From a virus, in the IMG/VR virus record IMGVR_UViG_3300031965_000543, positions 1 through 11,654 of that record: 11,654 nt of DNA. The stretch is one strand, 5' to 3'. Below are positions 130 through 11,654 of this stretch, one piece after another. The notes beneath the pieces were generated by a model. It was not told where the DNA came from and did not search any database. It saw only the letters and a list, made by a program, of their open reading frames with translations. The translations under genes and the position numbers were made by a program. Positions within the stretch are counted from its first letter, which is position 1. Each line of letters begins with the position of its first letter.

Positions 130-237
130 ATGGGAAAAGTTAAGATTAAGGAAAAGGAATATAATTTAACAGAATTTGAAGAAGCTTTAATACTTGAACT
201 TAGAGGTATTAAACTGGCACTAAAAAAGAATGGCTGA
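130..237 (+). CDS. Hypothetical small protein (35 aa), not in the supplied ORF track
   Basis: Hand translation from ATG 130: MGKVKIKEKEYNLTEFEEALILELRGIKLALKKNG, stop TGA 235-237. It fills the gap after the TerL stop. It overlaps the next start (ATG 230) in the aATGGCTGA arrangement typical of this genome. No clear SD. Confidence 0.35.
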   Translation: MGKVKIKEKEYNLTEFEEALILELRGIKLALKKNG

Positions 238-1040: not shown

Positions 1041-1636
1041 TAAATAATCCAAGTAATGTAAATGCAAATTATAACTTTGAAGATATAGCCGCAGGTTTTG
1101 GAGAGATAACTTATTATTTGTTTTCGTGGGATGATGATGGAACTATTAAATATGGATTAACAAAAGATATCATTGATTCTGCAGATCCAGCAGAAAAACG
1201 AAGTTCTGCCGGAGATTTAGATTTTGATAGTCCAACTTTTAGACTTCCAAAAATATTACAGGGAACTGCTACATTTACTTTTATGGGAGCTAATCAAGAT
1301 CAAGGAGGTGGAGGGAACCCTTTTAAACCAATAATAAAAGTAATGCATTGGGATGGTACTACTGAAACTCAAATCGGCTCTGATATAAATGGAGGGGGAT
1401 TAGGAGCTAGTGGTACTGCTGTTAAAAAATGGACTTTAAGAGCAAATTTACCAAGAACTAAATTTAGAAAAGGAGATTTATTAAGAATTAATGTTTCATG
1501 GGTAACAGTAACCCCAGACGAAGCAGAACTAGGATTCAGCCCTACAGATCAAGATGGAGATTTTTTAACACCTAGCTCAAATGCAGATCATACAACAATA
1601 TTTAAAGCAATAATACCATTTAATATAGATATATAA
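1028..1636 (+). CDS. Hypothetical protein, probably beta-rich virion-associated
   Basis: 202-aa ORF translationally coupled on both sides (overlaps the nuclease stop; its stop is 1 nt before the portal start). Contains Gly-rich loops (QGGGGNP, NGGGLGASG). No family recognised. Confidence 0.6.
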   Translation: MADLINNPSNVNANYNFEDIAAGFGEITYYLFSWDDDGTIKYGLTKDIIDSADPAEKRSSAGDLDFDSPTFRLPKILQGTATFTFMGANQDQGGGGNPFKPIIKVMHWDGTTETQIGSDINGGGLGASGTAVKKWTLRANLPRTKFRKGDLLRINVSWVTVTPDEAELGFSPTDQDGDFLTPSSNADHTTIFKAIIPFNIDI

Positions 1637-1637
1637 A

Positions 1638-2735
1638 ATGCCAGAAACAAATATAGAAAACACCGTAGTAACTGATTTAACTAATGCCATTACTGATTTT
1701 TCAGTAGATCAAGAGACTACAGACGCTCCAGGATATGAAGAAGACTTTACATATCAAAATGAGAACTGGTCTAAACAACTAGGATATTATAAAAAAATAC
1801 CAGAGTTAAGAGCGTCTATAGACGCTATAGCAAATTGGACTGTGGGTAATGGTTACGAAGCAGATGAAATAACAACTTTAATTCTAGATAGAGTAAAGGG
1901 TAATGGTAAAGATATATTCAATACAATTTTAGAAAATCAAAGAAGGGTAGCAGAGATAGCAGGAGATAGTTTTGCAGAAATAATAACTAATGATGAAAAT
2001 ATTTTAATTAATCTAAAACCACTAGACCCAAGTACAATTAGAGTGCATTTCAATAGTAAAGGACAAATAAAAAAATATGTTCAAACTACTAAAGTAAAAG
2101 GAAAAAGCAAAGAGCATACATTCAAAGTAGGGGAAATATTTCACTTATCAAGAAATAGAACTGCGGACGAGGCTCATGGTATTAGTGTTGTTGATTCTGT
2201 AGAAGAAATAATATTAATGCGTAATGAAGCTATGACCGATTGGAAAAAAGTACTACATAGAAATGTAGTCCCATTAAGAATTATAGAGATAGATTCAGAT
2301 GATAATACAAAGATAGCGAGTATGAAAGCTGATTATCAGGAAGCAATTAGTAAAGGAGAAGTACTAATAATACCAAAGGGTAATGTAGAGATTAAAGATG
2401 GGGGTATAGCTCCTAACGCAACACTAAATCCTTTACCATGGATAGAACAACTAAATTCATATTATTATCAGGCAGTAGGAGTACCAGACATCATAGTTGG
2501 AGGTAGTAGGGCGTTAACAGAGGCTAGCGCAAAGATAGCATTATTAGCTTACGAAAGAACTATTAGAGCCAATCAATTAGATGTAGAGGAGCAAGTATTA
2601 TCTCAACTAAACTTAGAGATTAAATTACAATTCCCAGTGTCATTAATGAACGAATTATTATCAAGTGTACAACCACAAAAAGAACAGGCAGTAGAATCAA
2701 ATGATTTAACAACGGAGGTAGAAGGTAGAAAATGA
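1638..2735 (+). CDS. Portal protein
   Basis: 365-aa ORF in the head module. Portal-like blocks seen by eye: ELRASIDAIANWTVGNGY, GDSFAEII...LKPLDPSTIRV, IFHLSRNRTADEAHGISVVDSV, acidic C-terminal tail. Not search-verified. Confidence 0.7.
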   Translation: MPETNIENTVVTDLTNAITDFSVDQETTDAPGYEEDFTYQNENWSKQLGYYKKIPELRASIDAIANWTVGNGYEADEITTLILDRVKGNGKDIFNTILENQRRVAEIAGDSFAEIITNDENILINLKPLDPSTIRVHFNSKGQIKKYVQTTKVKGKSKEHTFKVGEIFHLSRNRTADEAHGISVVDSVEEIILMRNEAMTDWKKVLHRNVVPLRIIEIDSDDNTKIASMKADYQEAISKGEVLIIPKGNVEIKDGGIAPNATLNPLPWIEQLNSYYYQAVGVPDIIVGGSRALTEASAKIALLAYERTIRANQLDVEEQVLSQLNLEIKLQFPVSLMNELLSSVQPQKEQAVESNDLTTEVEGRK

Positions 2736-2941
2736 CAAAAGAAACTGAAAAAGAAAAACGAGAACTAAACAAACCAATCATAGAAACCATAATAAATACT
2801 ACAGCGTTGACTATGACAGGGTTTGCAGTACAGCAAATAATTACGAATAATCAAAATATTGTTTATGCATATCTAGCTTTGTTTATTGGTATGGGCTTAG
2901 AATTTATTAAATATTGGGGTAGAAAACGAGAGTTTTGGTAA
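2732..2941 (+). CDS. Small membrane protein (1-2 predicted TM helices)
   Basis: 69 aa. Charged N-terminus, then hydrophobic stretches ALTMTGFAVQQII and IVYAYLALFIGMGLEFI. ATGA overlap with the portal stop. Confidence 0.6.
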   Translation: MTKETEKEKRELNKPIIETIINTTALTMTGFAVQQIITNNQNIVYAYLALFIGMGLEFIKYWGRKREFW

Positions 2942-2945
2942 ATGA

Positions 2946-4352
2946 ATGGCAAAGATAGGTAGATCAGAATTTTTAAAGAGAAGACAGCAGCAGATAGATA
3001 GCGGTATAATAAATCCATCAACTAATGCTCCATCTTATGCTCCACCTTCTAATCCTCTAATACCAGGCTCTCAAATAGAAGATCAATTAGGAGGAAATAT
3101 ACCTGGAGTTGAGCCTAATTTCGGAGCTAATGTACCTTTTAATAATCAATCTAGGGCATCTCCAGAAGATTTACTACAGCAAAGTCTATTACCTCAACAG
3201 TCTACACCCCCACCTAATAATTTTACTCCCTTATCCAATAATGTTAACCTTTCAGTAGAACAATCAAGAGCAAGCCAATTTCAAAACAATTTACCTTTTG
3301 AAGAAAGATTACTTAATTTAGGTAACGAAGCAGCGCAGGGATTAGGTTTACCAGACCCAAACCAAAATAATCCTAATGCAGTATTTGATGAGTATGGTAA
3401 CGTAATAGGATTTAAAGATACAGGACAGGGTATACCGCCAGGTTTAGCTTTAGGAGGGGTAGGTTTAGCAGAAGGAGCTTTAGCAGCCTCAGCGAGACAA
3501 GCTCAATTAGTTTTTGCAAAGGTAGAAGCACAGTTCATAGATGATTTTACTAGATTATTTAATCAAAAATTATTACCAGCTCCATCTGGTGGGAGAATAT
3601 TTATAGGGAGTAAATTTAAAGTTCCTGAAATTAAAGAAATATATAAAATAAAACCAGAAGTTTTTACGCCAAGTAGTGGAAATGTAGAACAAAATACAAA
3701 GACGGCTAGAATAGTAAATAACTATATATATAACGAATATACAAAAAGTGGAAGACCCATAAGTAAATTTGGGAAATTTATAATAGCAGGGATAGGATTT
3801 AATGGTTTAGGAGAATGGGCTAGATTAGATAATGTTGGGACTGGAGTAGAAATTACTTATAATAAAGTATTACAGAGAGGATCTGTAGAAGAAATAGAAG
3901 CAGCTAAAAAAGTAAGAGATGATATTTATAATGAGCCTTTATGGAGTGCTATTGGAAGATTCTTACCTTTTGTAGGGGGAGTTACTGGATTTATACAGGG
4001 ATATAAAGCACTTAAATTTCAAATAAGTGTTAATGATATGATAACAGAAGATATTATTAATGGAATTCCTTTAACAGAAGAAACCACAGCTAAAAAAGAA
4101 TCTGATTTATTTAAAGAAGATACATTATGGTTTCATGAAGAACAAGAAAAAGCAAGAGAAAGGGAAAGACAAGCAGAAATTGAAGGTAGAAATGAAGACG
4201 CAGCTTTCTGGAGAAAAGAAAGACAAAAGAAAATTGAAGATGAAAGAAGGGCAAGAATTGAATCTGCAGAGTTTTGGCTAGCATACAGAAAGAAAGTAGC
4301 TGAGATGGAATCAGATAATTCACCTAGTAAATTAGCTTTCGGATTATTATAA
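2946..4352 (+). CDS. Large hypothetical virion/ejection-type protein: Q/N/P-rich disordered N-terminus, Gly-rich hydrophobic segments, charged coiled-coil C-terminus
   Basis: 468-aa ORF. About 170 aa are rich in P/Q/N/S. Hydrophobic Gly-rich segments: GLALGGVGLAEGALAASA, FIIAGIGFNGLG, FLPFVGGVTGFIQG. C-terminal EEQEKARERERQAEIEGRNEDAAFWRKERQKKIEDERRARIESAEFW. Confidence 0.7.
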   Translation: MAKIGRSEFLKRRQQQIDSGIINPSTNAPSYAPPSNPLIPGSQIEDQLGGNIPGVEPNFGANVPFNNQSRASPEDLLQQSLLPQQSTPPPNNFTPLSNNVNLSVEQSRASQFQNNLPFEERLLNLGNEAAQGLGLPDPNQNNPNAVFDEYGNVIGFKDTGQGIPPGLALGGVGLAEGALAASARQAQLVFAKVEAQFIDDFTRLFNQKLLPAPSGGRIFIGSKFKVPEIKEIYKIKPEVFTPSSGNVEQNTKTARIVNNYIYNEYTKSGRPISKFGKFIIAGIGFNGLGEWARLDNVGTGVEITYNKVLQRGSVEEIEAAKKVRDDIYNEPLWSAIGRFLPFVGGVTGFIQGYKALKFQISVNDMITEDIINGIPLTEETTAKKESDLFKEDTLWFHEEQEKARERERQAEIEGRNEDAAFWRKERQKKIEDERRARIESAEFWLAYRKKVAEMESDNSPSKLAFGLL

Positions 4353-4361
4353 GGTTTTGAT

Positions 4362-4382
4362 GAAACTTTTCCTAAAAGTTTC
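4362..4382. promoter_or_regulatory. Palindrome family copy P1: GAAACTTTT-CCT-AAAAGTTTC (perfect 9-bp arms, centre inverted relative to other copies)
   Basis: Read directly. Lies between the stop of 2946..4352 and the SD/start of 4395..4643. Confidence 0.8.
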
Positions 4383-4394
4383 GGAGGTATTGAA

Positions 4395-4643
4395 ATGGAA
4401 GAAGATGTTAAACAACAAAAAGAAGTTATATCAGGTTCTCAGAACATGATTGATCAGGCAAGAGAGCAAGCTAATAGAATAGAAGCAGCTAATAAACGTC
4501 AAGAAGAACTAATTAAGAGACAAGAAGAAATATTAATAAGAGCTCAATTTGGTGGTAGGGCAGAGGCTGGAAGTAAAGACGAAACTCCTAAAGAAGAAAC
4601 CCCAGCAGAGTATAAAGAAAAAGTTATGAAGGGGGAACTATGA
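4395..4643 (+). CDS. Coiled-coil protein, scaffolding-protein candidate
   Basis: 82 aa, strongly charged and helical (QAREQANRIEAANKRQEELIKRQEEILIRAQ). GGAGG SD upstream (4383-4387). Position upstream of the decoration and capsid genes. Confidence 0.5.
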   Translation: MEEDVKQQKEVISGSQNMIDQAREQANRIEAANKRQEELIKRQEEILIRAQFGGRAEAGSKDETPKEETPAEYKEKVMKGEL

Positions 4644-4828
4644 GTAGAGAAGTTAAAATTAATAAGGAGCTAGTAGCAAAGATTGGTACAGAAGAAGAGA
4701 AAGCATGGTCAGATATTAAGAAAGACGCAACAGAAAAGAACAAAGAGTTAACTAGAGTTATACAAATCAATGAGCAAATAATTAAATATGCAGATACTAA
4801 AATTAAAGAAGAAAAAGGAAAAGTTTAA
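4640..4828 (+). CDS. Small coiled-coil hypothetical protein
   Basis: 62 aa, K/E-rich helical. ATGA overlap with the preceding ORF. Confidence 0.5.
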   Translation: MSREVKINKELVAKIGTEEEKAWSDIKKDATEKNKELTRVIQINEQIIKYADTKIKEEKGKV

Positions 4829-4852
4829 ATACATATTAAATAAGGAGAGGCT

Positions 4853-5266
4853 ATGGCATTAGAAGCAACATTAGTTTTTGAAACCGGTTTACCAATTCCT
4901 ATGCAATGTGCAAACGGTACAGGAATAGAGAAAGGGGCTATATTAAAATTATCTGATCCTTTTACTGTAGCAACAGCAGACGGAGATACTGACGCTGTTG
5001 GAGGTATAGCAGCAGAGGAGAAGATAGCTAATGATGGTAAGACTACTATAGCAGTATATAGAGAAGGAATCTTTAAAGGTTTTGCAGGTGCTGCTGGAGT
5101 TATAGTTGGTATGGGTATTATTACTGATGTAAGTACAGGGGCAGCTAATGAATTAGTCGTAGCAGATGTTAACTCAGAACATTTAGTAGGGATTGCTTTA
5201 GAAACAGCAACAGATACAGAATCATTTTTATTTGAATTAAAACCTTTAGGGTTACAACTAGCATAA
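4853..5266 (+). CDS. DUF2190-like head decoration / capsid cement protein candidate
   Basis: 137 aa, Gly/Ala/Val-rich beta pattern (GAILKLSD...AVGGIAAEE...TIAVYREGIF...GIALETA) resembling the DUF2190 family. That family typically sits directly upstream of HK97-type MCP genes. Strong SD AAGGAGAG upstream. Confidence 0.55.
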   Translation: MALEATLVFETGLPIPMQCANGTGIEKGAILKLSDPFTVATADGDTDAVGGIAAEEKIANDGKTTIAVYREGIFKGFAGAAGVIVGMGIITDVSTGAANELVVADVNSEHLVGIALETATDTESFLFELKPLGLQLA

Positions 5267-5284
5267 GCTTTTAGGAAAAGATTA
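5264..5284. promoter_or_regulatory. Palindrome family copy P2: TAAGCTTTT-AGG-AAAAGATTA (8/9 arm pairs)
   Basis: Read directly. Its first TAA is the stop codon of 4853..5266, and it ends 8 nt before the MCP start. Confidence 0.75.
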
Positions 5285-5291
5285 ATAGAAG

Positions 5292-6191
5292 ATGGCAGAT
5301 ACAAGCGGACAAGCAGACATTAGAGGATTAGACGTAGATAAATTAGCAAAGGGATTTGCTGAAGAAGATTTAGTATTAAAGAATTTTTGTAATGTATCAT
5401 CTACATCTGCAAGGGAAATCAGATGGTATCAGAAGACAGCAGGATTTATAACAGGAACTACAACTTCGGGAATGACCTCAGAGTTAATAGCTTTAGGTGC
5501 TAATAAAGCTATAGCTAGTGTAGCTGAGCAATCATGGACTAGAAATACAAGTTATGTAAGACAATATTTTGTAGAGTCTCCAACTATTTCAAATGCAGAT
5601 ATCAAAGATACAGATATAGATATCTTAGCTGCTAATATAAGAGATTTAACAAGATCAGTAAATAATCAAGTTGATAAAAGAATTTATGATGTTATAACTG
5701 ATAATGTTTCTGGAACTCCTTTTGATGGGAGCACAGTTACTTCTAACGCTGCAACTGCAGACGGATGGGATGACACAGTTACAGGAGATCCTATTAAAGA
5801 TTTGATGTTAGCTAAAACAACAATAAGATTACAAAGTTATAATCCAGAAGGAGCAATATTATATATTCATCCTACAGAACATTCTAATTTATTACAATAT
5901 TTAATAAGTGTTAAAGGAAGTAGTATCCCTCAATTTTCTAGTCAAAAAGTAATGAGTGGAGTGGTTATGGAAATTCTAGGATTAAATGTAGCTGTGAGTG
6001 CTAACGCAACTACTGATTATGCTGTTGTATTTGTACCGAAAGTAGCGTGTACATGGAAACAATTTACTCCTATAACTGCAGTATCTATTAATGATCCAGG
6101 CATAGGAACTAAGATAAGAGTATGGGAAGAGGGAGAAGCAATCTTAACAGATCCTAATGCGGTCTGCGGAATAACTGATACGGTGGTATAA
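5292..6191 (+). CDS. Major capsid protein (HK97-fold candidate)
   Basis: 299-aa ORF in the canonical position after the scaffold-like and decoration-like genes. Size and sequence texture (ISNADIKDTDIDILAANIRDLTRSVNNQVDKRIY; C-terminal ILTDPNAVCGI) are consistent with phage capsid family proteins. Not search-verified. Confidence 0.7.
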   Translation: MADTSGQADIRGLDVDKLAKGFAEEDLVLKNFCNVSSTSAREIRWYQKTAGFITGTTTSGMTSELIALGANKAIASVAEQSWTRNTSYVRQYFVESPTISNADIKDTDIDILAANIRDLTRSVNNQVDKRIYDVITDNVSGTPFDGSTVTSNAATADGWDDTVTGDPIKDLMLAKTTIRLQSYNPEGAILYIHPTEHSNLLQYLISVKGSSIPQFSSQKVMSGVVMEILGLNVAVSANATTDYAVVFVPKVACTWKQFTPITAVSINDPGIGTKIRVWEEGEAILTDPNAVCGITDTVV

Positions 6192-6193
6192 AT

Positions 6194-6361
6194 ATGACAT
6201 TACAAACTTGTTATAAAAGGTTAGAAATTGCAAAAGCTTCAAATAATCAGAAACAGGTTAAATTATGGGAAGAAAGAATTAAAAGAAAAGAATCCAAATA
6301 TAAAGAAACTGAAATTTATGATGTTCCTAAAAACTCCAATGGTAAGAAATCAAAGAGATGA
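6194..6361 (+). CDS. Hypothetical small protein (55 aa), not in the supplied ORF track
   Basis: Hand translation from ATG 6194 (2 nt after the MCP stop): MTLQTCYKRLEIAKASNNQKQVKLWEERIKRKESKYKETEIYDVPKNSNGKKSKR, stop TGA 6359-6361. It competes with the TTG-started 5' part of track ORF 6228..6509, which is in another frame. Confidence 0.35.
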   Translation: MTLQTCYKRLEIAKASNNQKQVKLWEERIKRKESKYKETEIYDVPKNSNGKKSKR

Positions 6362-6509
6362 AGGAAAAGGTAGTTATACAGTAACAAATCATTCTGTAGA
6401 CAGAGCTTTAGATTGTAATGGAGATGATGATTTAGCAACTGCGGATGTTCTAGGATCATTAATTGCAGATCTAATTGAAGCTGGAATTATTAAAGGTAGT
6501 GTAAGTTAA
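6318..6509 (+). CDS. Hypothetical protein (start uncertain: ATG 6318, 6321 or 6339; the track calls TTG 6228)
   Basis: The C-terminal part (SYTVTNHSVDRALDCNGDDDLATADVLGSLIADLIEAGIIKGSVS) looks protein-like. The 5' extension to TTG 6228 is K-rich, overlaps the ATG-started ORF 6194..6361, and lacks an RBS. Confidence 0.4.
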   Translation: MMFLKTPMVRNQRDEGKGSYTVTNHSVDRALDCNGDDDLATADVLGSLIADLIEAGIIKGSVS

Positions 6510-6539
6510 TTATTTAAATAAGTAAATTAAATTAATTCT

Positions 6540-6692
6540 ATGGCAAATACATACAATCAAAAAGAACTTAAAACTAAATGGCCTATCACCTCAGGACTAA
6601 TTGCTGGGAGTACTAAACAAAAAGGAAGAAGATCTACTCTCGTACCAGAACGTGGTAGTTTAGTTCCTAGTAGAAAGAAGATAGGTGTATAA
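6540..6692 (+). CDS. Hypothetical small basic protein (50 aa), not in the supplied ORF track
   Basis: Hand translation from ATG 6540: MANTYNQKELKTKWPITSGLIAGSTKQKGRRSTLVPERGSLVPSRKKIGV, stop TAA 6690-6692, 1 nt before ATG 6694. It fills an otherwise empty gap. No obvious SD. Confidence 0.3.
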   Translation: MANTYNQKELKTKWPITSGLIAGSTKQKGRRSTLVPERGSLVPSRKKIGV

Positions 6693-6693
6693 T

Positions 6694-7047
6694 ATGGCTT
6701 ACAACAAAACAAGTCATATTCTAAATAGATTAACAGGTAGAAATAAAGCCGTTAAACCTAAATTTGAAACAGAAACTAGAACACCTATAGGAACAGACTT
6801 ATATCTACCTAATAACTCAGGAGTTAAGAGATCTCTTCAAGAGAAAGATCTAAGTTTTAATTGTCTGGAATTAACTGGAAGTGGAGGCTCTGAAATTAAT
6901 AGCGATATAAATTTCAATGGAGATATTAAAGTAAATGATACTACAGCAGTATCTGGTTATTTCGATGATGGAGTTAACTTTAGAATAACAGTTGTCAAGG
7001 GCATTATAACAGCCATAGAGGATAGTTCTGGGGCGGGTCATTCTTAA
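6694..7047 (+). CDS. Hypothetical protein, possible tail/fibre component
   Basis: The track ORF starts at GTG 6685, but ATG 6694 (MAYNKTSH...) directly follows the upstream stop and matches the MA- start seen in many genes here. Its stop is 1 nt before the next gene. Function guessed from its position in front of the lectin-like protein. Confidence 0.6.
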   Translation: MAYNKTSHILNRLTGRNKAVKPKFETETRTPIGTDLYLPNNSGVKRSLQEKDLSFNCLELTGSGGSEINSDINFNGDIKVNDTTAVSGYFDDGVNFRITVVKGIITAIEDSSGAGHS

Positions 7048-7048
7048 T

Positions 7049-8113
7049 ATGCCTGAGCCATCTTTATCTAATAAAACGTATCTCTGGGAGTTTAAAGATA
7101 GTACTGGTTATGTTATAAACTCAGCTATAACATTCGAAGATAATGGAGAAGGAGCTAGATTAGGTTATACTGAGGCTTTATTAGGAGACATAGTAGAAGA
7201 TTTAGATGATAATGATTTTAGTAATTGGTTTAGTGATGATACAGCAACACAAGATCTTTCATTAAAAAGATTTGGGGTAAGCTCTGCTAAATTTGAAAGC
7301 TCTGTTAATGATGATAGTCAACTCAATCTGGGTGGGGGAGTATCCTCAGGAACTGCTACCTCATATTTATTCTATGATAATGGAGCGTTAGGTACTACAA
7401 ATAGGATAATCCAGCTTAAGAATGGGGTTAATGGGAGGATATTCTTCTTTGGATACAGACCCTCTACATCTAATACAAATTATTCTTATAGATCTGATGG
7501 AGCTTGGATAGATTCTGGAATCGTAAGATCTGTTGGGTGGCACGACATAAAATATCTAGTTAATAACACAACAGGAACAGTATGTTATTTGGATGGACAG
7601 CAACTATTCAGTAATGCTGTTTTAATATCACATCCTGAGATATTTGCTGTTGTAACAAATACTATAAATCAACCATTATGGATAGATAGAATATTACATA
7701 ATAGGGCAATTCCTGGATTATATGTCCCTACTGGAGATCTAATAACTGCTGATGTGTTTCCTACTCGGGTTATTAGATGGCTAAGTAGAAGCTTTAGTAT
7801 TAGCTCTGATGATTATTGGAGAAATAATAAAAGTAATGTAGTTTTAAGTTTTAAAGCTAGTACTGATGGAGGGCTCTCATGGGGTACTAATTCTCCTAAT
7901 TATAATGATGATAATTATTCTGGGCTAAATGATAATAATTTAAAAAATATTAAATGTGATGGGGATGGCTTAGATGGGATTAGAATAAGAATAACTTTAA
8001 ATATATTTGCTGAAAAACAGCAAAGCCCTTTAATAAATCAATTAACTTTAAGTTATGCGGATAGTTCTAAACTTTATGATGCTAAACTTTATGATGCTAA
8101 TTTAGGATGTTAA
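7049..8113 (+). CDS. Putative receptor-binding / tail-fibre protein with a jelly-roll (LamG/concanavalin-like) central region
   Basis: 354 aa. The central segment (TSYLFYDNGALG...RIFFFGYRP...GWHDIKYLVNNTTGTVCYLDGQQLFSN) resembles LamG/ConA-like lectin folds. It is the last gene of the structural block. The C-terminus carries a KLYDA tandem duplication. Confidence 0.6.
   Translation: MPEPSLSNKTYLWEFKDSTGYVINSAITFEDNGEGARLGYTEALLGDIVEDLDDNDFSNWFSDDTATQDLSLKRFGVSSAKFESSVNDDSQLNLGGGVSSGTATSYLFYDNGALGTTNRIIQLKNGVNGRIFFFGYRPSTSNTNYSYRSDGAWIDSGIVRSVGWHDIKYLVNNTTGTVCYLDGQQLFSNAVLISHPEIFAVVTNTINQPLWIDRILHNRAIPGLYVPTGDLITADVFPTRVIRWLSRSFSISSDDYWRNNKSNVVLSFKASTDGGLSWGTNSPNYNDDNYSGLNDNNLKNIKCDGDGLDGIRIRITLNIFAEKQQSPLINQLTLSYADSSKLYDAKLYDANLGC
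8067..8100 (+). repeat. 15-bp tandem repeat (ctaaactttatgatg x2.3) at the 3' end of the receptor-binding candidate
   Basis: Units at 8067-8081 and 8082-8096 plus a partial unit at 8097-8100. Encodes ...KLYDAKLYDA... Confidence 0.9.
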
Positions 8114-8114
8114 A

Positions 8115-8135
8115 TAAGCTTTTAGAAAAAGCTTA
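8115..8135. promoter_or_regulatory. Palindrome family copy P3: TAAGCTTTT-AGA-AAAAGCTTA (perfect 9-bp arms), followed by an extra half-site AAAAGCTT at 8139-8146
   Basis: Read directly. Begins 2 nt after the stop of 7049..8113. Confidence 0.8.
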
Positions 8136-8149
8136 AAGAAAAGCTTAAA

Positions 8150-8165
8150 CTTCTTTCAAAAGAAG
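8150..8165 (+). terminator. Small hairpin CTTCTT-tcaa-AAGAAG after the structural operon, with a T5 run further downstream (8189-8193)
   Basis: Read directly. AT-rich 6-bp stem with no adjacent U-tract, so only weak terminator character. Together with P3 it marks the end of the structural block. Confidence 0.3.
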
Positions 8166-8230
8166 CAAAATAGAGATAAGTTGCAATCTTTTTGGATGTA
8201 AATGACATGACGACAATAGCCACCGCCAGG

Positions 8231-8238
8231 TTTATATA
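8231..8238 (+). promoter_or_regulatory. TATA-like promoter candidate (TTTATATA) upstream of gene 8282..8749
   Basis: TTTATATA at 8231-8238, followed by more AT-rich TATA-like sequence, AGGAGG SD at 8268-8273 and ATG 8282. It matches the archaeal TATA consensus, but bacterial -10-like hexamers (tatatt, tataaa) also occur here, so the promoter type is unresolved. Confidence 0.25.
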
Positions 8239-8281
8239 GTTATTTATATTATCATATATATAAAACTAGGAGGTTTTACAA

Positions 8282-8749
8282 ATGAAAAAAATTATAACAA
8301 AAATTAGTGCTATAGACAATACAAAAAAAGATAGAAATGGTAAGCCTTATTTAAGGATACAATTAGAAGAAGATAATTCTTGGCATAGCGTGTTCAGAGA
8401 AGGGCACAAAGTAGACGCAATTCAGAGTTTAAATAACAATACTAAGGTTGAAGTTACTTTAGAGCAGAATGGAAATTACATTAATATATTAGATATTTCT
8501 CCAATAATTGAAGAAGAGCTAGTAGTTAACCCTATAGAGCCAGAGAAAGAGTTTAAACCTATAGAGAATAAACCTTTATTTAGAAGACATGAAGATAAAG
8601 ACTATAATATGTGGCTTAGTACTAGGTTAAGCTATGCAAAGGATATATATTGTGAAGCTATGAAGCAAAACAACAATACGTATTCTATAGATCACTGCGT
8701 TAAGTTGATATTGCATGCAGAAGAGTTACTAAAAGAGAGGAGCTTATAA
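8282..8749 (+). CDS. Hypothetical protein; N-terminal beta-rich (possible OB-fold) domain plus C-terminal helical domain
   Basis: 155 aa with strong AGGAGG SD. The N-terminus (KISAIDNTKKDRNGKPYLRIQLEEDNSWHSVF...KVEVTLEQNGNYINILDI) looks like a small beta-barrel, so nucleic-acid binding is a guess only. Confidence 0.65.
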   Translation: MKKIITKISAIDNTKKDRNGKPYLRIQLEEDNSWHSVFREGHKVDAIQSLNNNTKVEVTLEQNGNYINILDISPIIEEELVVNPIEPEKEFKPIENKPLFRRHEDKDYNMWLSTRLSYAKDIYCEAMKQNNNTYSIDHCVKLILHAEELLKERSL

Positions 8750-8770
8750 GAAAATAAAGGAGGAATTGAT

Positions 8771-9238
8771 ATGAAAAACAATTGTATAGATATACCAGAA
8801 TTAAACATAAGTGTAGAAAAAGAAGTCCATGATAAAGGAAAATCATGGGATGAGTTAGGTTTAGATTACAACAGAAAATACTTATTAACAGCAGAAGAGT
8901 GTATTTGGTTAGCTAATTCTAAATATGCTAAGATACTAAAAATGGATGGAAACTCTTCACAGGATGATTTCTTCATCCAACAGCCATTTAATAAGAATAA
9001 AGACTTTGACTATATCGCGGGGTTCTGCGCCTACTCTGGCGGGGCTAACCTCGATTGCGGCGGGGATTCGGCTTACTCGAATTCTGGGCTCGGGGTAAGA
9101 TTCAAAAAGAAGCTTTTAGGAAAAGCTTCACCAAAAGAAGCTTTTAGGAAAAGCTTCAAGGAAAGGGTGAAGGTTTGTGGTTTTGGGGTGACTCACCTCT
9201 TTTTTCCACGCCTCTTAGGCCTTCACCCCCTTAAATAA
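8771..9238 (+). CDS. Hypothetical protein; the 3' third is compositionally aberrant (GC-rich codons, then read-through of palindromic repeats and a hairpin+T6)
   Basis: AGGAGG SD and an AT-rich 5' two-thirds look like a normal gene. From ~9017 the codons switch to GCG/GGG/GGC/CTC/TCG (52/81 G+C by hand count). 9105-9158 is a 26-nt repeat translated in two different frames. The extent of the true CDS is uncertain. Confidence 0.5.
   Translation: MKNNCIDIPELNISVEKEVHDKGKSWDELGLDYNRKYLLTAEECIWLANSKYAKILKMDGNSSQDDFFIQQPFNKNKDFDYIAGFCAYSGGANLDCGGDSAYSNSGLGVRFKKKLLGKASPKEAFRKSFKERVKVCGFGVTHLFFPRLLGLHPLK
9105..9158. repeat. Tandem pair of palindrome family copies P4 (9109-9129) and P5 (9137-9157): GAAGCTTTT-AGG-AAAAGCTTC, within 26-nt direct repeats at a 28-bp period
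   Basis: aaaagaagcttttaggaaaagcttca at 9105-9130 and 9133-9158, identical. Each contains perfect 9-bp inverted arms. Confidence 0.9.
9165..9228 (+). other. GC-rich long stem-loop: GGGTGAAGG (9165-9173) pairs with CCTTCACCC (9220-9228); inner GTGG/CCAC pairing
   Basis: Reverse-complement pairs checked by hand. The element encloses the hairpin+T6 at 9185-9205. Confidence 0.5.
9185..9205 (+). terminator. Intrinsic-terminator-like hairpin GGGGTG-act-CACCTC followed by T6
   Basis: 6-bp stem (one G-T pair) at 9185-9199 and TTTTTT at 9200-9205. It lies ~30 nt before the stop codon of ORF 8771..9238, which is atypical. Confidence 0.35.
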
Positions 9239-9256
9239 GCTTTTAAGAAAAGATTC
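9236..9256. promoter_or_regulatory. Palindrome family copy P6: TAAGCTTTT-AAG-AAAAGATTC (7/9 arm pairs; same AAAAGATT variant arm as P2)
   Basis: Read directly. Its first TAA is the stop codon of 8771..9238. Confidence 0.7.
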
Positions 9257-9324
9257 ATATGAGCGTTACGATAACGTATTCAAAGGAACAAGCACTATGC
9301 CAACATTTAAATACTTTAAAATAT

Positions 9325-9351
9325 AAATTCACATAGTGAATTTACATAGTG
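9325..9351. promoter_or_regulatory. Inverted repeat AAATTCAC-ata-GTGAATTT overlapping a direct repeat of ACATAGTG (9331-9338 and 9344-9351)
   Basis: Read directly. Operator-like architecture in the ORF-free region. Confidence 0.6.
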
Positions 9352-9390
9352 CCTAATTCTCGACTAGTTCTTAAGTACTTTGAATATAGA

Positions 9391-9420
9391 GGGGTTTTAC
9401 GGGGTTTTAGGTGTTTTAGT
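9391..9420. repeat. Three 10-bp phased tandem repeats GGGGTTTTAC / GGGGTTTTAG / GTGTTTTAGT
   Basis: Read directly. T4 tracts are phased at one helical turn, giving iteron-like or bent-DNA character. Confidence 0.85.
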
Positions 9421-9440
9421 ACACGGGTATGGTAATAACA

Positions 9441-9461
9441 GAAACTTTTAGAAAAAGTTTC
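9441..9461. promoter_or_regulatory. Palindrome family copy P7: GAAACTTTT-AGA-AAAAGTTTC (perfect 9-bp arms, same A:T variant as P1)
   Basis: Read directly. It immediately precedes the GC-rich hairpin cluster. Confidence 0.8.
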
Positions 9462-9616
9462 ACTGGCTCGTAGCGTTGGGACGCTACTTCGCTGTGCTAT
9501 GTGGCGAGGATTCACCTCAAGCTCCTCTCCTCGCAGTAGCCCCCCCGCTCTCGCTGCCCCCCGCTGGGGGGCCAGACACTTGGCGAGTAGCTTGCCACTA
9601 CTCGCGGAACTAACCA
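9462..9616. ncRNA. GC-rich cluster of four consecutive perfect hairpins: candidate structured ncRNA or cis-acting origin/packaging element (strand undetermined)
   Basis: Four hairpins: 9470-9487 (GTAGCGT/tggg/ACGCTAC), 9504-9534 (GCGAGGA...TCCTCGC), 9556-9572 (GCCCCCC/gct/GGGGGGC), 9583-9605 (GCGAGTAG/cttgcca/CTACTCGC). 43/60 G+C at 9541-9600 versus 17/60 in a typical coding line. Only low-complexity ORFs overlap it. Confidence 0.35.
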
Positions 9617-9662
9617 ACCCCACCCACCCACCACATCCCACCGCCCACCCACCCACCCACCC
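9617..9662 (-). repeat. (CCCA)n on + strand / (GGGT)n on - strand: G-quadruplex / i-motif-forming tract
   Basis: + strand: accccacccacccaccacatcccaccgcccacccacccacccaccc. The minus strand of 9644-9662 reads GGGTGGGTGGGTGGGTGGG, five G3 runs with 1-nt loops. Confidence 0.85.
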
Positions 9663-9722
9663 TAATGTTTATAATATAATGAGTCTTAATAGGTTTTTTT
9701 TGTGTGTTATCAGGAGTTAACA

Positions 9723-9734
9723 GAAAAATTTTTC
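9723..9734. repeat. Perfect A5/T5 palindrome GAAAAATTTTTC
   Basis: Read directly. A nearby hairpin ATAGGC-tttttatg-GCCTAT lies at 9742-9761. Confidence 0.7.
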
Positions 9735-9766
9735 ATATTTTATAGGCTTTTTATGGCCTATTTCGT

Positions 9767-9829
9767 AATCTCCATAGGAAAAGTAGGTTCTGGAGTATAT
9801 AGAAATCTCCATAGGAAGCGAAGGTTCTG
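9767..9829. repeat. Two 26-bp direct repeats at a 37-bp period (AATCTCCATAGGAA + AGGTTCTG core)
   Basis: 9767-9792 is aatctccataggaaaagtaggttctg. 9804-9829 is aatctccataggaagcgaaggttctg. The first 14 nt and the last 8 nt are identical. Confidence 0.85.
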
Positions 9830-9926
9830 TGATAGGTAGAGAGTCTGTAGTATCAAAATAGGTGTTTTCGGGTAACCTACGTTTCCAGTGGAGAAATATT
9901 GGTTTAACAATACATACCTATATATA

Positions 9927-9940
9927 TACTTACGTAAGTA
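9927..9940. promoter_or_regulatory. Perfect 14-bp palindrome TACTTACGTAAGTA
   Basis: Reverse complement checked by hand. It shares GTAAGTAC (9934-9941) with a second copy at 9981-9988. Confidence 0.8.
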
Positions 9941-9946
9941 CAAGTA

Positions 9947-9969
9947 TAGTAGTAGTAGTAGTAGTAGTA
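9947..9969. repeat. Trinucleotide microsatellite (TAG)7 plus TA
   Basis: tagtagtagtagtagtagtagta read directly. It lies ~40 nt upstream of the start codon at 10010. Confidence 0.95.
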
Positions 9970-9985
9970 ATTTAATAAGTGTAAG

Positions 9986-9995
9986 TACGTACGTA
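9986..9995. promoter_or_regulatory. Perfect 10-bp palindrome TACGTACGTA abutting the SD of gene 10010..10204
   Basis: Read directly. GGAGG at 10000-10004 follows, then a 5-nt spacer and ATG 10010. Confidence 0.75.
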
Positions 9996-10009
9996 GGATG
10001 GAGGTTAAA

Positions 10010-10204
10010 ATGAAAAAACATTACAATTTATATCTAAGCATAAACAAAATAGAGCCATTAAAAGAAGAAGGAATTAATATTTCTAGATTAATAGATAATG
10101 CTCTTTCTGATATTTCAGAACAAAAACCACTTATAAGAAGAATAGCAGAACTAGAAGAACAAAATAAACAAATGAAATGGGCTATAAAGAGGTTACAAAG
10201 ATGA
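10010..10204 (+). CDS. Ribbon-helix-helix-like DNA-binding protein with C-terminal coiled coil (regulator or small-terminase candidate)
   Basis: Start moved from the track ATG 9998 to ATG 10010 because GGAGG (10000-10004) sits 5 nt upstream. MKKHYNLYLSINKIEPLKEEGINISRLIDNALSD fits a beta-strand/helix/helix pattern, followed by IRRIAELEEQNKQMKWAIKRLQ. Confidence 0.55.
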   Translation: MKKHYNLYLSINKIEPLKEEGINISRLIDNALSDISEQKPLIRRIAELEEQNKQMKWAIKRLQR

Positions 10205-10428
10205 ATAATACTAGACTAGAAAAATGGGGACATACTTTAATAATGAAAAATCCCCCTAAAAGATGTTCAAAATGTGGAATAAATTTAGTACCACCTTTTC
10301 AATTTTGTAAAGAATTTGAAAAAGGATTCTGTGAAAATTGTGAAAAGGGAACATCTAAAAGACTATGTTATAGTATGGAAGAAGAACATGAACACTTTAA
10401 CATCATAAAAATAGAAGATGAATCTTGA
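10201..10428 (+). CDS. Zinc-ribbon protein (CxxC...CxxC)
   Basis: The in-frame ATG 10201 overlaps the upstream stop as ATGA, with AGAGG 8 nt upstream (the track start at 10177 is less likely). Motifs CSKCG and CENCEKG. Confidence 0.6.
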   Translation: MNNTRLEKWGHTLIMKNPPKRCSKCGINLVPPFQFCKEFEKGFCENCEKGTSKRLCYSMEEEHEHFNIIKIEDES

Positions 10429-11650
10429 TAAATGGCAAGAAGAAGTACTAGCTACAAAGGGCAACATTTGCCTACGATCTGGTAGACAAGTAGGAAAATC
10501 TACTATTATAGGTTTGAAAGCAGCTCAATATGCTTTAGAAACTCCTGATAAACTTATTATGGTTATATCTAAGACAGAAAGACAAGCAGGACTACTATTT
10601 GCTAAAATTCTTAGAAATATTAATAATATTGATAGAAAACAAATAGAAAAGGGAAAATTAAGACCTACAAAACATCTTATTAACTTAAAGAACAAATCTC
10701 AAATACATTGCCTTCCAGCGGGTGATACGGGCTATGGGATTATGGGATTTACAATTGATCTACTAATTGCTGATGAAGCAGCATTCATCCCTGAAGAAGT
10801 TTGGAATAGTGTAATACCAGCTTTAGCAGTTACAGGGGGAGATATTTGGCTATTATCAACACCATTTGTTAAAAAAGGATATTATTATAATTGTTTTTCA
10901 GATCCTACCTTTACTTCATTCCATACAAGCAGCGAAGATTGTCCTAGAATATCAAAAGAATTCTTAGAACACAAAAGAAATACAATTACTAAAGCCCAAT
11001 ATGCACAGATGTATTTAGGTAAGTTTGTAGATGAAGTAAGACAATTCTTTTCTGATGAACTAATAAGAAGAACTTGTACCCTAAAAAGAAGAACTAAAAT
11101 TGGAGTAGGAGATTATGGCCTAGGTTGTGATGTAGCTAGAATGGATAGAGATGAATTTACTTATGAAATTATAGAAAGAATAAGATCAGATTATTTAGAA
11201 CAAGTAGAAAATATAATAACTAAAGACATTCCCCTACCAGAAAGTACCAGAAGAATTTTACACCTAAACCAGATATATGATTTTAAGAAAATATACATAG
11301 ATTCCGGAGGGATGGGGATTGCAGTTTGTGATATGTTAAAAGAGATCCCAGATATGAAATATAAAGTAGTTGAAATAAATAATGCACAGAGAATTTATGA
11401 TAAAGAAGAAAGAAAGAAGAAACTCATAAAGGAAGATCTTTACAATCATTTAAAGTCATTAATGGAAAATAGAAAAATAAAATTGTTAGATGATGATGAA
11501 GTAAAAGCTTCTCTTAAAGGTATACAAGCAGAGCACCACCCAGAGACAGGAAGACTAAAGATATATGGTAATGATAGTCATGTAGCCGAAGGACTAATAA
11601 GAGCCGCACAAATAAGTAAAGAAAAAAGCTTAAATATGTGGATACGCTAA
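10418..11650 (+). CDS. terL: Terminase large subunit
   Basis: 410 aa. Walker A-like RSGRQVGKST, Walker B LLIADEAAF, coupling motif LLSTP. RNase-H-like nuclease half with GCDVARMDRDEF, IYIDSGGMGIAV and GNDSHVAEGLIRA. Confidence 0.9.
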   Translation: MNLDKWQEEVLATKGNICLRSGRQVGKSTIIGLKAAQYALETPDKLIMVISKTERQAGLLFAKILRNINNIDRKQIEKGKLRPTKHLINLKNKSQIHCLPAGDTGYGIMGFTIDLLIADEAAFIPEEVWNSVIPALAVTGGDIWLLSTPFVKKGYYYNCFSDPTFTSFHTSSEDCPRISKEFLEHKRNTITKAQYAQMYLGKFVDEVRQFFSDELIRRTCTLKRRTKIGVGDYGLGCDVARMDRDEFTYEIIERIRSDYLEQVENIITKDIPLPESTRRILHLNQIYDFKKIYIDSGGMGIAVCDMLKEIPDMKYKVVEINNAQRIYDKEERKKKLIKEDLYNHLKSLMENRKIKLLDDDEVKASLKGIQAEHHPETGRLKIYGNDSHVAEGLIRAAQISKEKSLNMWIR

Positions 11651-11654
11651 GATA
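11530..11654. repeat. Terminal direct repeat, copy 2 (exact duplicate of 1-125)
   Basis: Same comparison as copy 1. The repeat lies inside the TerL coding sequence plus 4 nt past its stop codon. Confidence 0.95.

Follow-up and report, generated by a model that had tools for sequence, protein, structure and literature searches.

The stretch of DNA analysed here (the window) is the viral record IMGVR_UViG_3300031965_000543 from IMG/VR, positions 1 to 11,654 (11,654 nt). With a 125-nt overlap between its ends, the genome is a circular map of about 11.5 kb, which the window seems to cover in full. The virus apparently belongs to a large and so far undescribed family of minimal tailed viruses (10–12 kb). 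All credible genes lie on the + strand in a single co-directional array. TerL (profile matches: Terminase_6N, 4e-15; phrog_2, 9e-38) has more than 1,100 relatives at E ≤ 1e-100; the closest one found amongst 5.8 billion proteins is 74% identical, and the closest relatives range from 60 to 74%. The closest TerL in GenBank is that of a haloarchaeal virus, while MCP and portal searched against GenBank phages, and 9000–10100 searched against GenBank phage DNA, gave no match. The binning of relatives into MAGs conflicts, one being placed in an archaeal bin and another in that of a Melioribacteraceae bacterium; an archaeal host is slightly more likely than a bacterial one. No replication gene was recognised in the window or amongst the extra ORFs scanned in six larger relatives, no polymerase gene was found, and orc1/cdc6 was absent from the window and from the extra ORFs scanned in six relatives. 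The SSB-like protein of 155 amino acids has homologues in four related loci (L012, L013, L015, L043), encoded 5′ of the non-coding region.

There is only one large non-coding gap (9239–10009), roughly 8% of the window's genome, and its most prominent component is the GC-rich island that is the subject of this work. The features of the region are as follows:

8282–8749, + strand: gene for the 155-aa protein, with a predicted N-terminal OB fold, SSB-like
9105–9158, unstranded: tandem repeats, two of 28 nt, a perfect 21-nt palindrome, GAAGCTTTTAGGAAAAGCTTC, in each
9185–9205, + strand: hairpin GGGGTGA-ctc-ACCTC, then T6; intrinsic-terminator-like, at the end of the array's last ORF
9441–9461, unstranded: AT-rich 9-bp palindrome GAAACTTTT-aga-AAAAGTTTC, left border of the island, from a family dispersed at gene boundaries
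9470–9487, unstranded: hairpin 1, GTAGCGT-tggg-ACGCTAC, perfect 7-bp stem
9504–9534, unstranded: hairpin 2, GCGAGGA (9504–9510) and TCCTCGC (9528–9534), 17-nt C-rich loop (TTCACCTCAAGCTCCTC)
9540–9572, unstranded: C7 run, duplicated CCCCCCGCT and hairpin 3
9556–9572, unstranded: hairpin 3, GCCCCCC-gct-GGGGGGC
9583–9605, unstranded: hairpin 4, GCGAGTAG-cttgcca-CTACTCGC, perfect 8-bp stem, 7-nt loop
9617–9662, + strand: C-rich, G-poor tract, (CCCA)n; C 33, G 1, A 11 and T 1 in 46 nt
9665–9745, + strand: conserved module of about 80 nt, GCGAtTATT-N27-TAGGAnCCCACAGAAAAATTTTTTAAAA, containing a T8 run
9694–9701, + strand: T8 run, 32 nt 3′ of the C tract, candidate U-tract terminator
9769–9789, + strand: 21-nt repeat, copy 1, TCTCCATAGGAAAAGTAGGTT, origin-recognition-box-like (ORB-like)
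9806–9826, + strand: 21-nt repeat, copy 2, TCTCCATAGGAAGCGAAGGTT
9874–9894, − strand: 21-nt repeat, inverted copy, TCTCCACTGGAAACGTAGGTT
9900–9997, unstranded: AT-rich low-complexity region with TATATATATA, (AGT)9 at 9943–9969 and GTAAGTAC palindromes
10010–10428, + strand: two small early genes, ribbon-helix-helix-like (RHH; weak CcdA match) and Zn-ribbon-like, directly 5′ of terL
10418–11650, + strand: terL, full large terminase

The sequence-only reading had singled out 9462–9616 as a GC-rich island of four back-to-back perfect hairpins in an AT-rich genome, and we could confirm this description. The island has 98 G+C in 155 nt (63%) versus 33% for the whole window; the counts given for two 60-nt sections (43 at 9541–9600 and 17 at 601–660) are exact, and a scan of the window found 155-nt stretches of at least 50% G+C at the island only. 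The four perfect stems, read directly and also found mechanically, lie at the coordinates that had been reported for them. Hairpin 2 has an alternative TCCTC register at 9523–9527, and the duplication of CCCCCCGCT (9541–9549 and 9557–9565), by which the G6 run acquires two possible C-run partners, is a real feature of the sequence; the switch proposed on its basis is hypothetical. All stems in the window are perfect Watson–Crick palindromes in which G-U pairs are absent. The palindrome upstream and the CCCA tract downstream, said to bound the island, are both present. G exceeds C over most of the coding strand, and this skew is reversed at the island. No credible ORF covers it, as had been proposed: the two ORFs that overlap it have no Pfam match, and the gene caller of an independent record made no call between 9238 and 10010.

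The palindrome AAGCTTTTAGRAAAAGCTT occurs at or just past gene ends at seven sites in the window genome, with a change in both arms (G-C to A-T) in two copies; a scan through IMG/VR recovered the AT-rich palindrome at 119 loci, none of which is related to the window virus. The hairpin at 9185–9205 is the only intrinsic-terminator-like site of the + strand and lies 260 nt 5′ of the island.

The sharp difference in composition between the island and the rest of the genome could point to an assembly chimera or a foreign GC-rich insert, a concern that the sequence-only reading had raised. However, the ENA contig L023 (ERZ27256875 k141_493800) was assembled independently and breaks the circle at another point; it is 100% identical over 9422–9711 and differs from the window at only two positions (9100 and 9821) over 8750–10020. 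Since this assembly carries the identical island, and equivalents occur in dozens of relatives, the island is not chimeric; as far as sequence data allow, that explanation is refuted, and we consider it barely conceivable.

The C tract (9617–9662) is unpaired in the predicted fold and would present on a transcript the C-rich, G-poor, unstructured stretch that defines a Rho-type rut site. It is the genome's only four-run C3+ motif (G4Hunter minimum, −2.16) and is therefore G-quadruplex-prone on the − strand, where 9618–9662 conforms to the G4 motif rule (at least four runs of G3+, loops of 1–7 nt). The canonical four-run motif occurs in only seven unique relatives: C-richness is general but G4 potential is not. 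CCCACCC is seen 21 times versus 0.75 expected, in 10 of 40 non-redundant loci, and its reverse complement twice. Downstream of the C tract lies a T-rich stretch (T8 in the window), which most module-bearing relatives have as well. We rejected an avoidance of T-runs on the coding strand, as the three runs of T≥6 match the chance expectation estimated from base frequencies.

The adjacent module of about 80 nt (in the window, TGAGTCTT...AGGAGTTAACAGAAAAATTTTTCATA) occurs in 28 loci, always on the + strand, and yielded no RNA consensus structure. It was considered as a sigma-70 promoter and dismissed: its conserved bases would sit in the spacer, and there is no sigma-70-like site in 8700–10100. 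The 21-nt repeats further downstream share a core, TTCCAGTGGA, which resembles archaeal mini-ORB sequences. By our own count, the core matches 11 of the 13 positions of the consensus TTCCAGTGGAAAC. Published work gives the archaeal mini-ORB as TTCCAGTGGAACT, in which TTCC..GAA does not vary (PMC1904270); the repeats of the window keep this part incompletely. Amongst the relatives, L070 carries an exact TTCCAGTGGAAAC, another copy is found in L060, and L031 has two tandem CTCCACTGGAAAC-CAT-GGGGGG units within (TA)n; TTCCAGTG is seen 6 times versus 0.38 expected. The low-complexity region at 9900–9997, with (TA)5 and (AGT)9 and about 25% G+C, lies directly 5′ of the first early gene and may serve for unwinding, as a promoter region or for both. 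Relatives likewise have an AT-rich region of this kind.

Conservation of the island in related viruses, a check that the sequence-only reading had advised, was not found at the level of sequence. The island could be aligned in none of the 94 related loci, and a BLASTN search with 8750–10020 against all of them, including a very sensitive setting, left it without a match; the sole weak similarity, around 9634–9743, led us to the conserved module. An exact-pattern scan of IMG/VR for the G6/C6 hairpin found none. Nevertheless, equivalent GC-rich islands exist in dozens of relatives from other samples, and the order hairpin cluster, C tract, (TA)n or microsatellite, early genes, terL is shared, with constant orientation, in at least 10 lineages. 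An island of the same polarity with the same neighbours is present in most sampled lineages, whose genomes are otherwise tightly packed. The constant partner of the island is the (TA)n or microsatellite region, seen with it in all lineages examined, and not the module. In L057, hairpin and CCACC tract alternate three times.

The hairpins themselves vary between relatives in number (from 0 to more than 5), spacing, order and sequence. In GC-rich hairpins with triloops, the loops are pyrimidine-rich and G-poor on the + strand, with 18 C-TNC-G versus 2 C-GNA-G loops in 11 loci (p = 4e-4). The pair L008 and L030 illustrates the turnover: their flanks are about 97% identical and their islands about 50% (alignment read by eye), the hairpins are kept with entirely different stems, a C-rich loop of 15–16 nt is retained, and the island changes at roughly the neutral rate. 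The window, L008 and L030/L024 all have C6–7/G6–7 palindromes. A scan of eleven genomes and loci placed the GC-rich hairpins together, 5′ of terL in the non-coding region; they are confined to one locus and not scattered, and we discarded dispersed mobile GC-rich palindromes (of the kind of yeast mitochondrial GC clusters or REP-like elements) as their origin.

What we observe directly are the features themselves, where they lie, which strand polarity they have, and that the architecture is conserved and the sequence is not. Because the architecture recurs while the sequence does not align, we take the island to be a polar cis-element that is structure-defined, not sequence-defined. It is evidently one half of a fast-evolving hairpin-plus-C-tract element kept across a large virus family, and from the gene maps, this element marks the boundary between the end of the late genes (the gene array) and the AT-rich origin-like or early-promoter-like region. 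The island's mode of evolution, as far as it can be read from the loci compared, is unusual: the sequence changes at a rate close to neutral, yet the capacity to form hairpins persists, as do the high G+C and the excess of C on one strand.

The proposal of a structural RNA gene found no support. Perfect hairpins are strongly enriched locally (10 nested matches in 9413–9667 versus a mean of 0.42 in dinucleotide shuffles, with 0 of 300 shuffles reaching 10), so that the shuffling control suggested earlier bore out the hairpins, but the folding energy of the whole region is only weakly better than that of shuffled sequence: z is −1.57 (+ strand) and −2.32 (− strand) for 9462–9616, −1.5 and −2.2 for 9385–9700, and −1.5 to −2.8 overall, depending on strand and limits. 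The Rfam search that had been advised returned no family at E ≤ 10 over 8800–10100, and nothing in the window or 18 relatives reached the gathering score; the library presumably includes the phi29 pRNA family. ARAGORN found no tRNA or tmRNA gene, and there was no tRNA match in Rfam. An rRNA fragment was also discounted: the only resemblance to the 3′ end of 16S is a short GATTCACCTC, and there is no SSU match in Rfam. For the window's own island, no related virus could be aligned (nearest TerL, 74% identical); the imperfect stems of relatives contain four G.T versus five A.C mismatches, i.e., no wobble asymmetry. Perfect stems and this lack of asymmetry may fit better with dyad symmetry at the DNA level than with selection on RNA only.

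We tentatively favour, at rather less than even confidence, a function of the island as a transcription barrier with 3′-end protection over that of an origin-auxiliary DNA structure. RNA polymerase exiting the last gene would transcribe the island as sense RNA; the stable hairpins would pause the polymerase and then shield the 3′ end from exonucleases, and transcripts would end at the unstructured C-rich stretch and the U-tract (T8, 9694–9701). Transcription would thus be kept from circling the 11.5-kb genome into the origin-like repeats and the early promoter. We infer that the region is transcribed, that 3′ ends lie there and that a host factor acts on it. The island is well placed for such a role, since it comes after the last ORF and ahead of the early genes and of the conserved module on the + strand. 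Conservation without sequence is also typical of terminator hairpins and of C-rich loading sites, and the sequence-free conservation of the island hairpins therefore counts for a terminator-type barrier. The hairpins are not intrinsic terminators themselves, because none of the GC-rich stems has a T-run directly after it. Several findings speak against a barrier: the T-run goes with the module and not with the island, being absent after the C tract in L012, L013 and L016, where the module lies elsewhere, and an intrinsic-terminator-like site already exists upstream, at 9185–9205. The biased triloops, read on the − strand, are C-GNA-G, which is a very stable DNA mini-hairpin, and this, like the perfect stems and the lack of wobble asymmetry, argues against a barrier. 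Furthermore, should the host be archaeal, no factor acting on C-rich RNA is known there. The archaeal factor aCPSF1/FttA recognises U-tracts (PMC8716108).

A cis-acting element near the packaging genes, as first suggested from the sequence, is compatible with the polar element found; of the two roles then named for it, a part in an origin is nearly as likely as the barrier and a pac site very improbable. As a DNA-level auxiliary of a replication origin, the island would act when the AT-rich region opens, by − strand hairpins and a G-quadruplex or by cruciforms in the duplex; such a structure would act by stopping or timing a replication fork, by recruiting priming or by limiting how far unwinding extends. 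In an R-loop-primed variant, a G-rich transcript of the − strand would hybridise to the C tract. The three adjoining ORB-like repeats (two direct, one inverted), the ORB-like copies in L070, L031 and L060 and the enrichment of TTCCAGTG are consistent with an origin, as are the AT-rich region, and not the module, being the island's constant partner, the perfect palindromes without wobble asymmetry, the − strand C-GNA-G triloops and the location of the genome's only G4 motif. An OB-fold, SSB-like gene lies near the region of a genome with no recognised replication gene. On the other hand, the canonical G4 motif is restricted to the seven unique relatives mentioned, no orc1/cdc6 gene is adjacent, and the ORB likeness is that of a short near-palindrome, which might serve instead as an operator for the adjacent RHH protein. 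The hairpins cannot be initiator sites, because their sequences are not conserved. The cleavage or recognition region for packaging (cos or pac) would require the terminase to cut GC-rich dyads such as GCCCCCCGCTGGGGGGC symmetrically, leaving stable GC-rich ends, while the small DNA-binding proteins whose genes adjoin terL would bind to the flanking repeats. GC-rich cohesive ends 5′ of the terminase genes are common in cos phages, the RHH, Zn-ribbon and terL genes begin about 400–950 nt downstream of the island, and the recurrent C6–7/G6–7 palindromes could serve as such dyads. Yet the closest relatives, with a TerL identity of 60–74%, do not share the island's sequence, a G/C palindrome of this type is missing from many relatives, and the stems differ within one genome, which is ill-suited to a sequence-specific terminase site. 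Moreover, assembled contigs of the same virus (L013/L014/L044; L010/L011; window/L023) are circularly permuted, and their ends do not coincide at the island.

A discrete non-coding RNA of about 300–400 nt acting in trans seems unlikely to us. It would start at a TATA-like sequence near 9305–9327, run through the palindrome, the hairpins and the C tract and end at T8, and it would sequester a protein or G-rich RNA or take part in packaging. The island does lie between the + strand's two non-coding or terminal T-runs (9200–9205 and 9694–9701), AT-rich TATA-like sequences occur upstream, hairpins are locally enriched, and strand-specific loops and C-tract composition would suit recognition in single-stranded form. 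Besides the Rfam and folding results, the lack of conservation of sequence, helix number and spacing amongst relatives stands against this RNA, as does the chance number of T≥6 runs (estimated from base frequencies); no conserved promoter was identified upstream, and the family's only conserved module is downstream, pointing away. The likeness to phi29 pRNA drawn earlier also fails on context, since a full TerL implies no phi29-like setting. The extreme, roughly neutral turnover in L008/L030, the variation from 0 to more than 5 hairpins and the perfection of the palindromes would all be expected if the island had no dedicated function and GC-rich palindromes, products of template switching or small selfish elements in themselves, merely accumulated in the one stretch where the compact genome tolerates insertions. 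We hold this explanation to be very unlikely, and slightly more so than a packaging site: polarity and neighbours are kept in most sampled lineages of tightly packed genomes, GC-rich hairpins are confined to the non-coding region 5′ of terL in the genomes scanned, and the strand bias of loops and C tract is significant.

Which of these roles the island plays (transcription stop, replication or packaging) bears on how a tailed virus without replication genes organises its life cycle. In a more far-reaching reading, which we regard as improbable, these would be the smallest terminase-bearing tailed viruses yet seen, with no recognisable replication gene and probably archaeal hosts, and their host-Orc1-type origin would be set by a polar array. 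This array would combine hypervariable stable hairpins with a G-quadruplex- or R-loop-prone tract and would act as a fork barrier or in priming, in a structure-specific manner that has been described neither for archaeal viruses nor for archaeal origins. Should the ORB likeness hold, the virus would provide a compact model in which to study how uncultured archaea use their origins. As no more than a terminator or insulator, the element would be ordinary biology, albeit in an interesting genome.

Amongst known systems, Rho-type terminators (lambda tR1) show the same order on the sense strand, with stable hairpins leading to an unstructured, C-rich, nearly G-free stretch and a T-rich region next; they too lie at the end of a transcription unit, just 5′ of the next promoter-like element, with almost no sequence conservation between relatives. 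In contrast to these, the island has four to five hairpins and not one, and the host of the window virus may be archaeal, while archaea lack Rho and their known factor reads U-tracts. Like the island, the phi29 pRNA is hairpin-rich, does not code for protein and belongs to a very small tailed virus, in which it lies close to the packaging genes. However, the island has neither an Rfam match nor a conserved secondary structure amongst relatives, and where phi29 has a protein-primed linear genome, the window virus has a circular map and a full large terminase. The stable intercistronic hairpins of T4 have C(UUCG)G loops. As in T4, GC-rich hairpins sit here in non-coding spacers of an AT-rich viral genome, a short C-G-closed loop recurs (C-TCC-G in relatives), and the window genome has a second hairpin family at gene boundaries; unlike in T4, the window's loops are neither UNCG nor GNRA, and its hairpins lie together at a single site along with a C tract.

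Archaeal oriC-type origins compare with the window in its two direct and one inverted TTCCAGTGGA repeats beside a (TA)n-rich stretch, and with relatives in the exact TTCCAGTGGAAAC and the ORB-plus-G-string-like unit. They differ in that the window has no adjacent orc1/cdc6 and its repeats have no G-string, and the described ORB origins offer no counterpart to the GC-rich hairpin island. GC-rich segments beside AT-rich regions are known from RK2 oriV and from the GC clusters of yeast mitochondrial ori, and transcript-primed G-rich blocks from the ColE1 and mitochondrial CSB II origins. The island has no sequence relationship to these origins, and the order of elements differs; the yeast GC clusters, moreover, are dispersed and mobile, whereas the hairpins of the window's family stay at one locus. 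What the island shares with these four origins is a strand-specific G/C asymmetry and structure-prone GC-rich DNA that adjoins a promoter-like element and an AT-rich region prone to melting.

The window ends in an exact direct repeat of 125 nt (1-125 and 11530-11654) and so comes from a circular assembly, about 11,529 bp long. This appears to be a complete tailed-virus map, including a portal, an HK97-type capsid protein and a full large terminase (TerL), and the + strand carries all credible genes. Its features are:

1638-2735, + strand: portal
+ strand: cement-like protein
5292-6191, + strand: HK97-type capsid protein
4363-4381, 5265-5283, 8116-8134, 9110-9128, 9138-9156, 9237-9255 and 9442-9460: 19-nt palindrome AAGCTTTTAGRAAAAGCTT
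9239-10009: single large non-coding gap (771 nt), containing the island
9462-9616: the island, a GC-rich hairpin array
9617-9662: C tract, (CCCA)n, with 33 C and 1 G
9665-9745, + strand: module of ~80 nt, consensus GCGAtTATT-N27-TAGGAnCCCACAGAAAAATTTTTTAAAA, directly after the C tract
9769-9789 and 9806-9826: direct 21-nt repeats, downstream of the module
9874-9894: inverted copy of the 21-nt repeat
9918-9927: (TA)n
9943-9969: (AGT)9 microsatellite
10418-11650, + strand: large terminase (terL)

Upstream of the gap is the last ORF; downstream of it, ahead of terL, two small genes encode an RHH-like protein, whose match to CcdA is weak, and a Zn-ribbon-like protein. No replication protein was recognised in the window or in the extra ORFs scanned of six relatives. 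The gene directly upstream of the last ORF (8282-8749) encodes a 155-aa protein with a predicted N-terminal OB fold followed by a helical hairpin (single-sequence model of moderate confidence; pLDDT 65 overall, 76-88 in the N-terminal part), the best Foldseek matches of which (E ~1e-3) are proteins that bind single-stranded DNA: baculovirus LEF-3, bacterial and mitochondrial SSBs, RPA and PriB. It has homologues in four related loci, and the gene adjoins the non-coding region in several. The last ORF (8771-9238) includes a GC-rich stretch specifying Gly/Ala/Ser/Cys-rich sequence (~8981-9100, G+C up to 49%); its final ~45 codons cross tandem palindromes and a hairpin-plus-T6 site, and its real C-terminus may therefore be a read-through of regulatory sequence.

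Genomes of phi29-like phages are about 19 kb, so that of the present virus is smaller. According to a review, phi29-like phages are the smallest known tailed viruses (PMC11476376). TerL relatives at E <= 1e-100 number 1,150, on contigs mostly of 9.9-12.7 kb, and a search of 5.8 billion proteins gave a nearest TerL of only 74% identity. The closest GenBank TerL is that of Halogranum tailed virus 1 (30.6% identity, 5e-43), and the capsid and portal proteins match nothing in GenBank phages.

The base counts of the sequence-only reading were exact (G+C 43 of 60 at 9541-9600; 17 of 60 at 601-660). In a composition profile, G+C is 63% in the island and 33% in the window, and the island is the sole place where a 155-nt segment reaches at least 50%. 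The four hairpins it described lie where it had placed them (9470-9487, 9504-9534, 9556-9572 and 9583-9605; perfect stems of 7, 7, 7 and 8 bp), and the duplicated CCCCCCGCT, the bounding AT palindrome upstream (9441-9461) and the (CCCA)n tract downstream were likewise recovered. Perfect hairpins are in excess, with 10 nested hits against 0.42 in dinucleotide shuffles (none of 300 equal), and the folding energy of the whole region gains modestly over shuffles (z between -1.5 and -2.8 for both strands and for RNA and DNA folding). As had been claimed, no credible ORF covers the island: both crossing ORFs lack a family match, and an independent gene call is empty across 9238-10010. A chimera was checked against a second contig of this virus, from ENA, with another circle break point, which is identical over 9422-9711 and differs twice in 1,271 nt; the island is no assembly artefact.

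Three tandem GGGGTTTTA units (9390-9419, + strand) lie 45 nt upstream of the island, on the opposite side of the hairpins from the C tract, and have the genome's top + strand G4Hunter score (1.48). Two copies of GA(C/T)TCACCTC (9190-9199 and 9509-9518, the one inside the loop of hairpin 2) resemble the 16S rRNA 3′ end, GGATCACCTCC, and are thus anti-Shine-Dalgarno-like; strong GGAGG-type ribosome-binding sites occur at this virus's genes.

The suggestion of a structural RNA gene gained no support. Rfam returned only noise at E <= 10, and neither the window nor any of 18 relatives had a hit that reached gathering score; no tRNA or tmRNA was found. Against 94 related loci gathered through TerL (here given L numbers), the island could not be aligned, even by very sensitive blastn: islands compared between viruses proved unalignable unless they were 100% identical, in which case one virus had been sampled again. 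By these searches, the island is not recognisable as a known or conserved RNA. The pRNA family, a tRNA-derived attachment site, an intrinsic terminator and a dispersed GC-palindrome family were tried as well; a defining feature of each was absent, and the island belongs to none of them.

What recurs is the architecture. In most relatives, the corresponding place upstream of terL is GC-rich too, and GC-rich perfect hairpins cluster there (eleven genomes or loci scanned). In at least 10 lineages, with constant orientation, the hairpin cluster is followed by a coding-strand C-rich tract, an AT-rich region of (TA)n or trinucleotide repeats, and the early genes with terL; in L057, hairpin and CCACC tract alternate three times. 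Across 40 non-redundant loci, the non-coding regions contain CCCACCC 21 times (0.75 expected) and its reverse complement twice. Among GC-rich triloop hairpins on the + strand of 11 loci, C-TNC-G outnumbers C-GNA-G by 18 to 2 (p = 4e-4), and no two of the 13 unique C-TCC-G-type hairpins share a stem; the window's own loops differ. One pair of relatives, L008 and L030 (85% identical overall), is at a useful distance: in the alignment as read, the non-coding flanks are ~97% identical and the island ~50%. The hairpins are kept with changed stems, CCCCCCGCC-TTC-GGCGGGGGG versus TCCCCCCC-TCC-GGGGGGGA and, closing a retained C-rich loop of 15-16 nt, GAAATGTGG/CCACATTTC versus AGTTGCTG/CAGCAACT. Taken with the conserved architecture and polarity, this argues that selection acts on the structure and composition of the island, not on its sequence.

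Relatives also share a ~40-nt element, ACCGAGACAAC-N3-5-GTTTTCTCAGGACTCTTTCC (L090 55-92, L008 748-783, L030 1440-1477, L024 218-255), which includes a small hairpin with a variable loop; a purine-rich (GAAGAG)n tract comes next. A 24-bp palindrome, AGTTATTCGG-N2-4-CCGAATAACT, absent from the window, is conserved in several relatives' control regions (L005 1196-1219, L016 2429-2446, L052 ~925-940, L060 ~155-180, L070 ~2003-2030, and L072) and is probably the operator of a dimeric protein. Within the window, AAGCTTTTAGRAAAAGCTT stands at or just past gene ends at its seven sites (0.03 matches expected); copies 4363 and 9442 change G-C to A-T in both arms, keeping the stem, and the palindrome may serve as a punctuation hairpin in RNA or as a site for a protein.

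The module is the family's most conserved non-coding sequence, with fixed internal spacing. A sequence-only model detects it in 28 loci at E < 1e-3, on the + strand without exception (L052 842-924, L078 1968-2049 and 25 other loci besides the window). It has no consensus RNA structure, its T-rich spacer includes a T8 run (9694-9701), and BRE/TATA-like promoter, regulatory site and packaging site are its possible roles. It lies ahead of the early genes or, in some relatives, immediately before or after terL; the constant partner of the island is, therefore, the AT-rich region. In many relatives, trinucleotide microsatellites, (ACT)n, (AGT)n or (ACA)n, and (TA)n directly precede the first early gene (L052 ~940-975, L051, L016, L013), and slippage could vary promoter spacing.

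The core of the 21-nt repeats, TTCCAGTGGA, resembles archaeal mini-ORB sequences (ORB, origin recognition box), e.g., Pyrococcus TTCCAGTGGAACT, in which TTCC and GAA are conserved (PMC1904270). The ORB-like core TTCCAGTGGAAAC occurs exactly in L070 (2263), L031 has two tandem CTCCACTGGAAAC-CAT-GGGGGG units, with a G-string-like run, within (TA)n (~270-300, ~360-390), and L060 has another copy (~205-225); TTCCAGTG is enriched 16-fold. This resemblance hints at an Orc1-type origin served by host Orc1/Cdc6, and an archaeal host. Sigma-70-like promoters gave no match in the control region (3.5 expected), and MAG binning placed the contigs of two relatives one with archaea and one with bacteria.

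These observations fit a cis-element that is polar, defined by its structure, and placed where the gene array gives way to an origin- or promoter-like region. As its function we rank first, tentatively, a barrier to transcription. Sense-strand hairpins would pause the polymerase and shield 3′ ends, transcripts would end at the unstructured C-rich stretch and a U-tract, and, on a circle transcribed in one direction, termination would insulate the origin and the early promoter. Such a barrier would make sense of several features: the polarity, conservation free of sequence, an extreme excess of C over G where segments are unpaired, the T-rich stretch and the genome's hairpins at gene boundaries. 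However, an archaeal host would leave no known C-tract factor, some relatives have no T-run after the island, and stems and loops have DNA-like features. Because these weaknesses are serious, an auxiliary DNA structure of the origin is almost as likely, in which - strand hairpins or a G4 beside the unwinding element would stop the fork, offer a priming site or bound the melting.

The other explanations rank lower. A discrete non-coding RNA with its 3′ end at the T8 run is improbable, given the Rfam result, and a cos or pac site slightly more so: where a virus was recovered from more than one sample, its contigs are circularly permuted (L013/L014/L044; L010/L011), and L044 (12,373 nt) exceeds its 9.95-kb unit genome, which fits circular or concatemeric templates and does not indicate a fixed terminus. 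Neutral accumulation of palindromes is a little less probable again beside the constant order and orientation, and an artefact, in view of the second contig, is scarcely credible.

We rate the island as a variant of the viral non-coding control region, in an apparently undescribed family. In working, the element would be closest either to a rut-type terminator with protective hairpins or to the GC-rich part found beside the AT-rich region of some plasmid and organelle origins.
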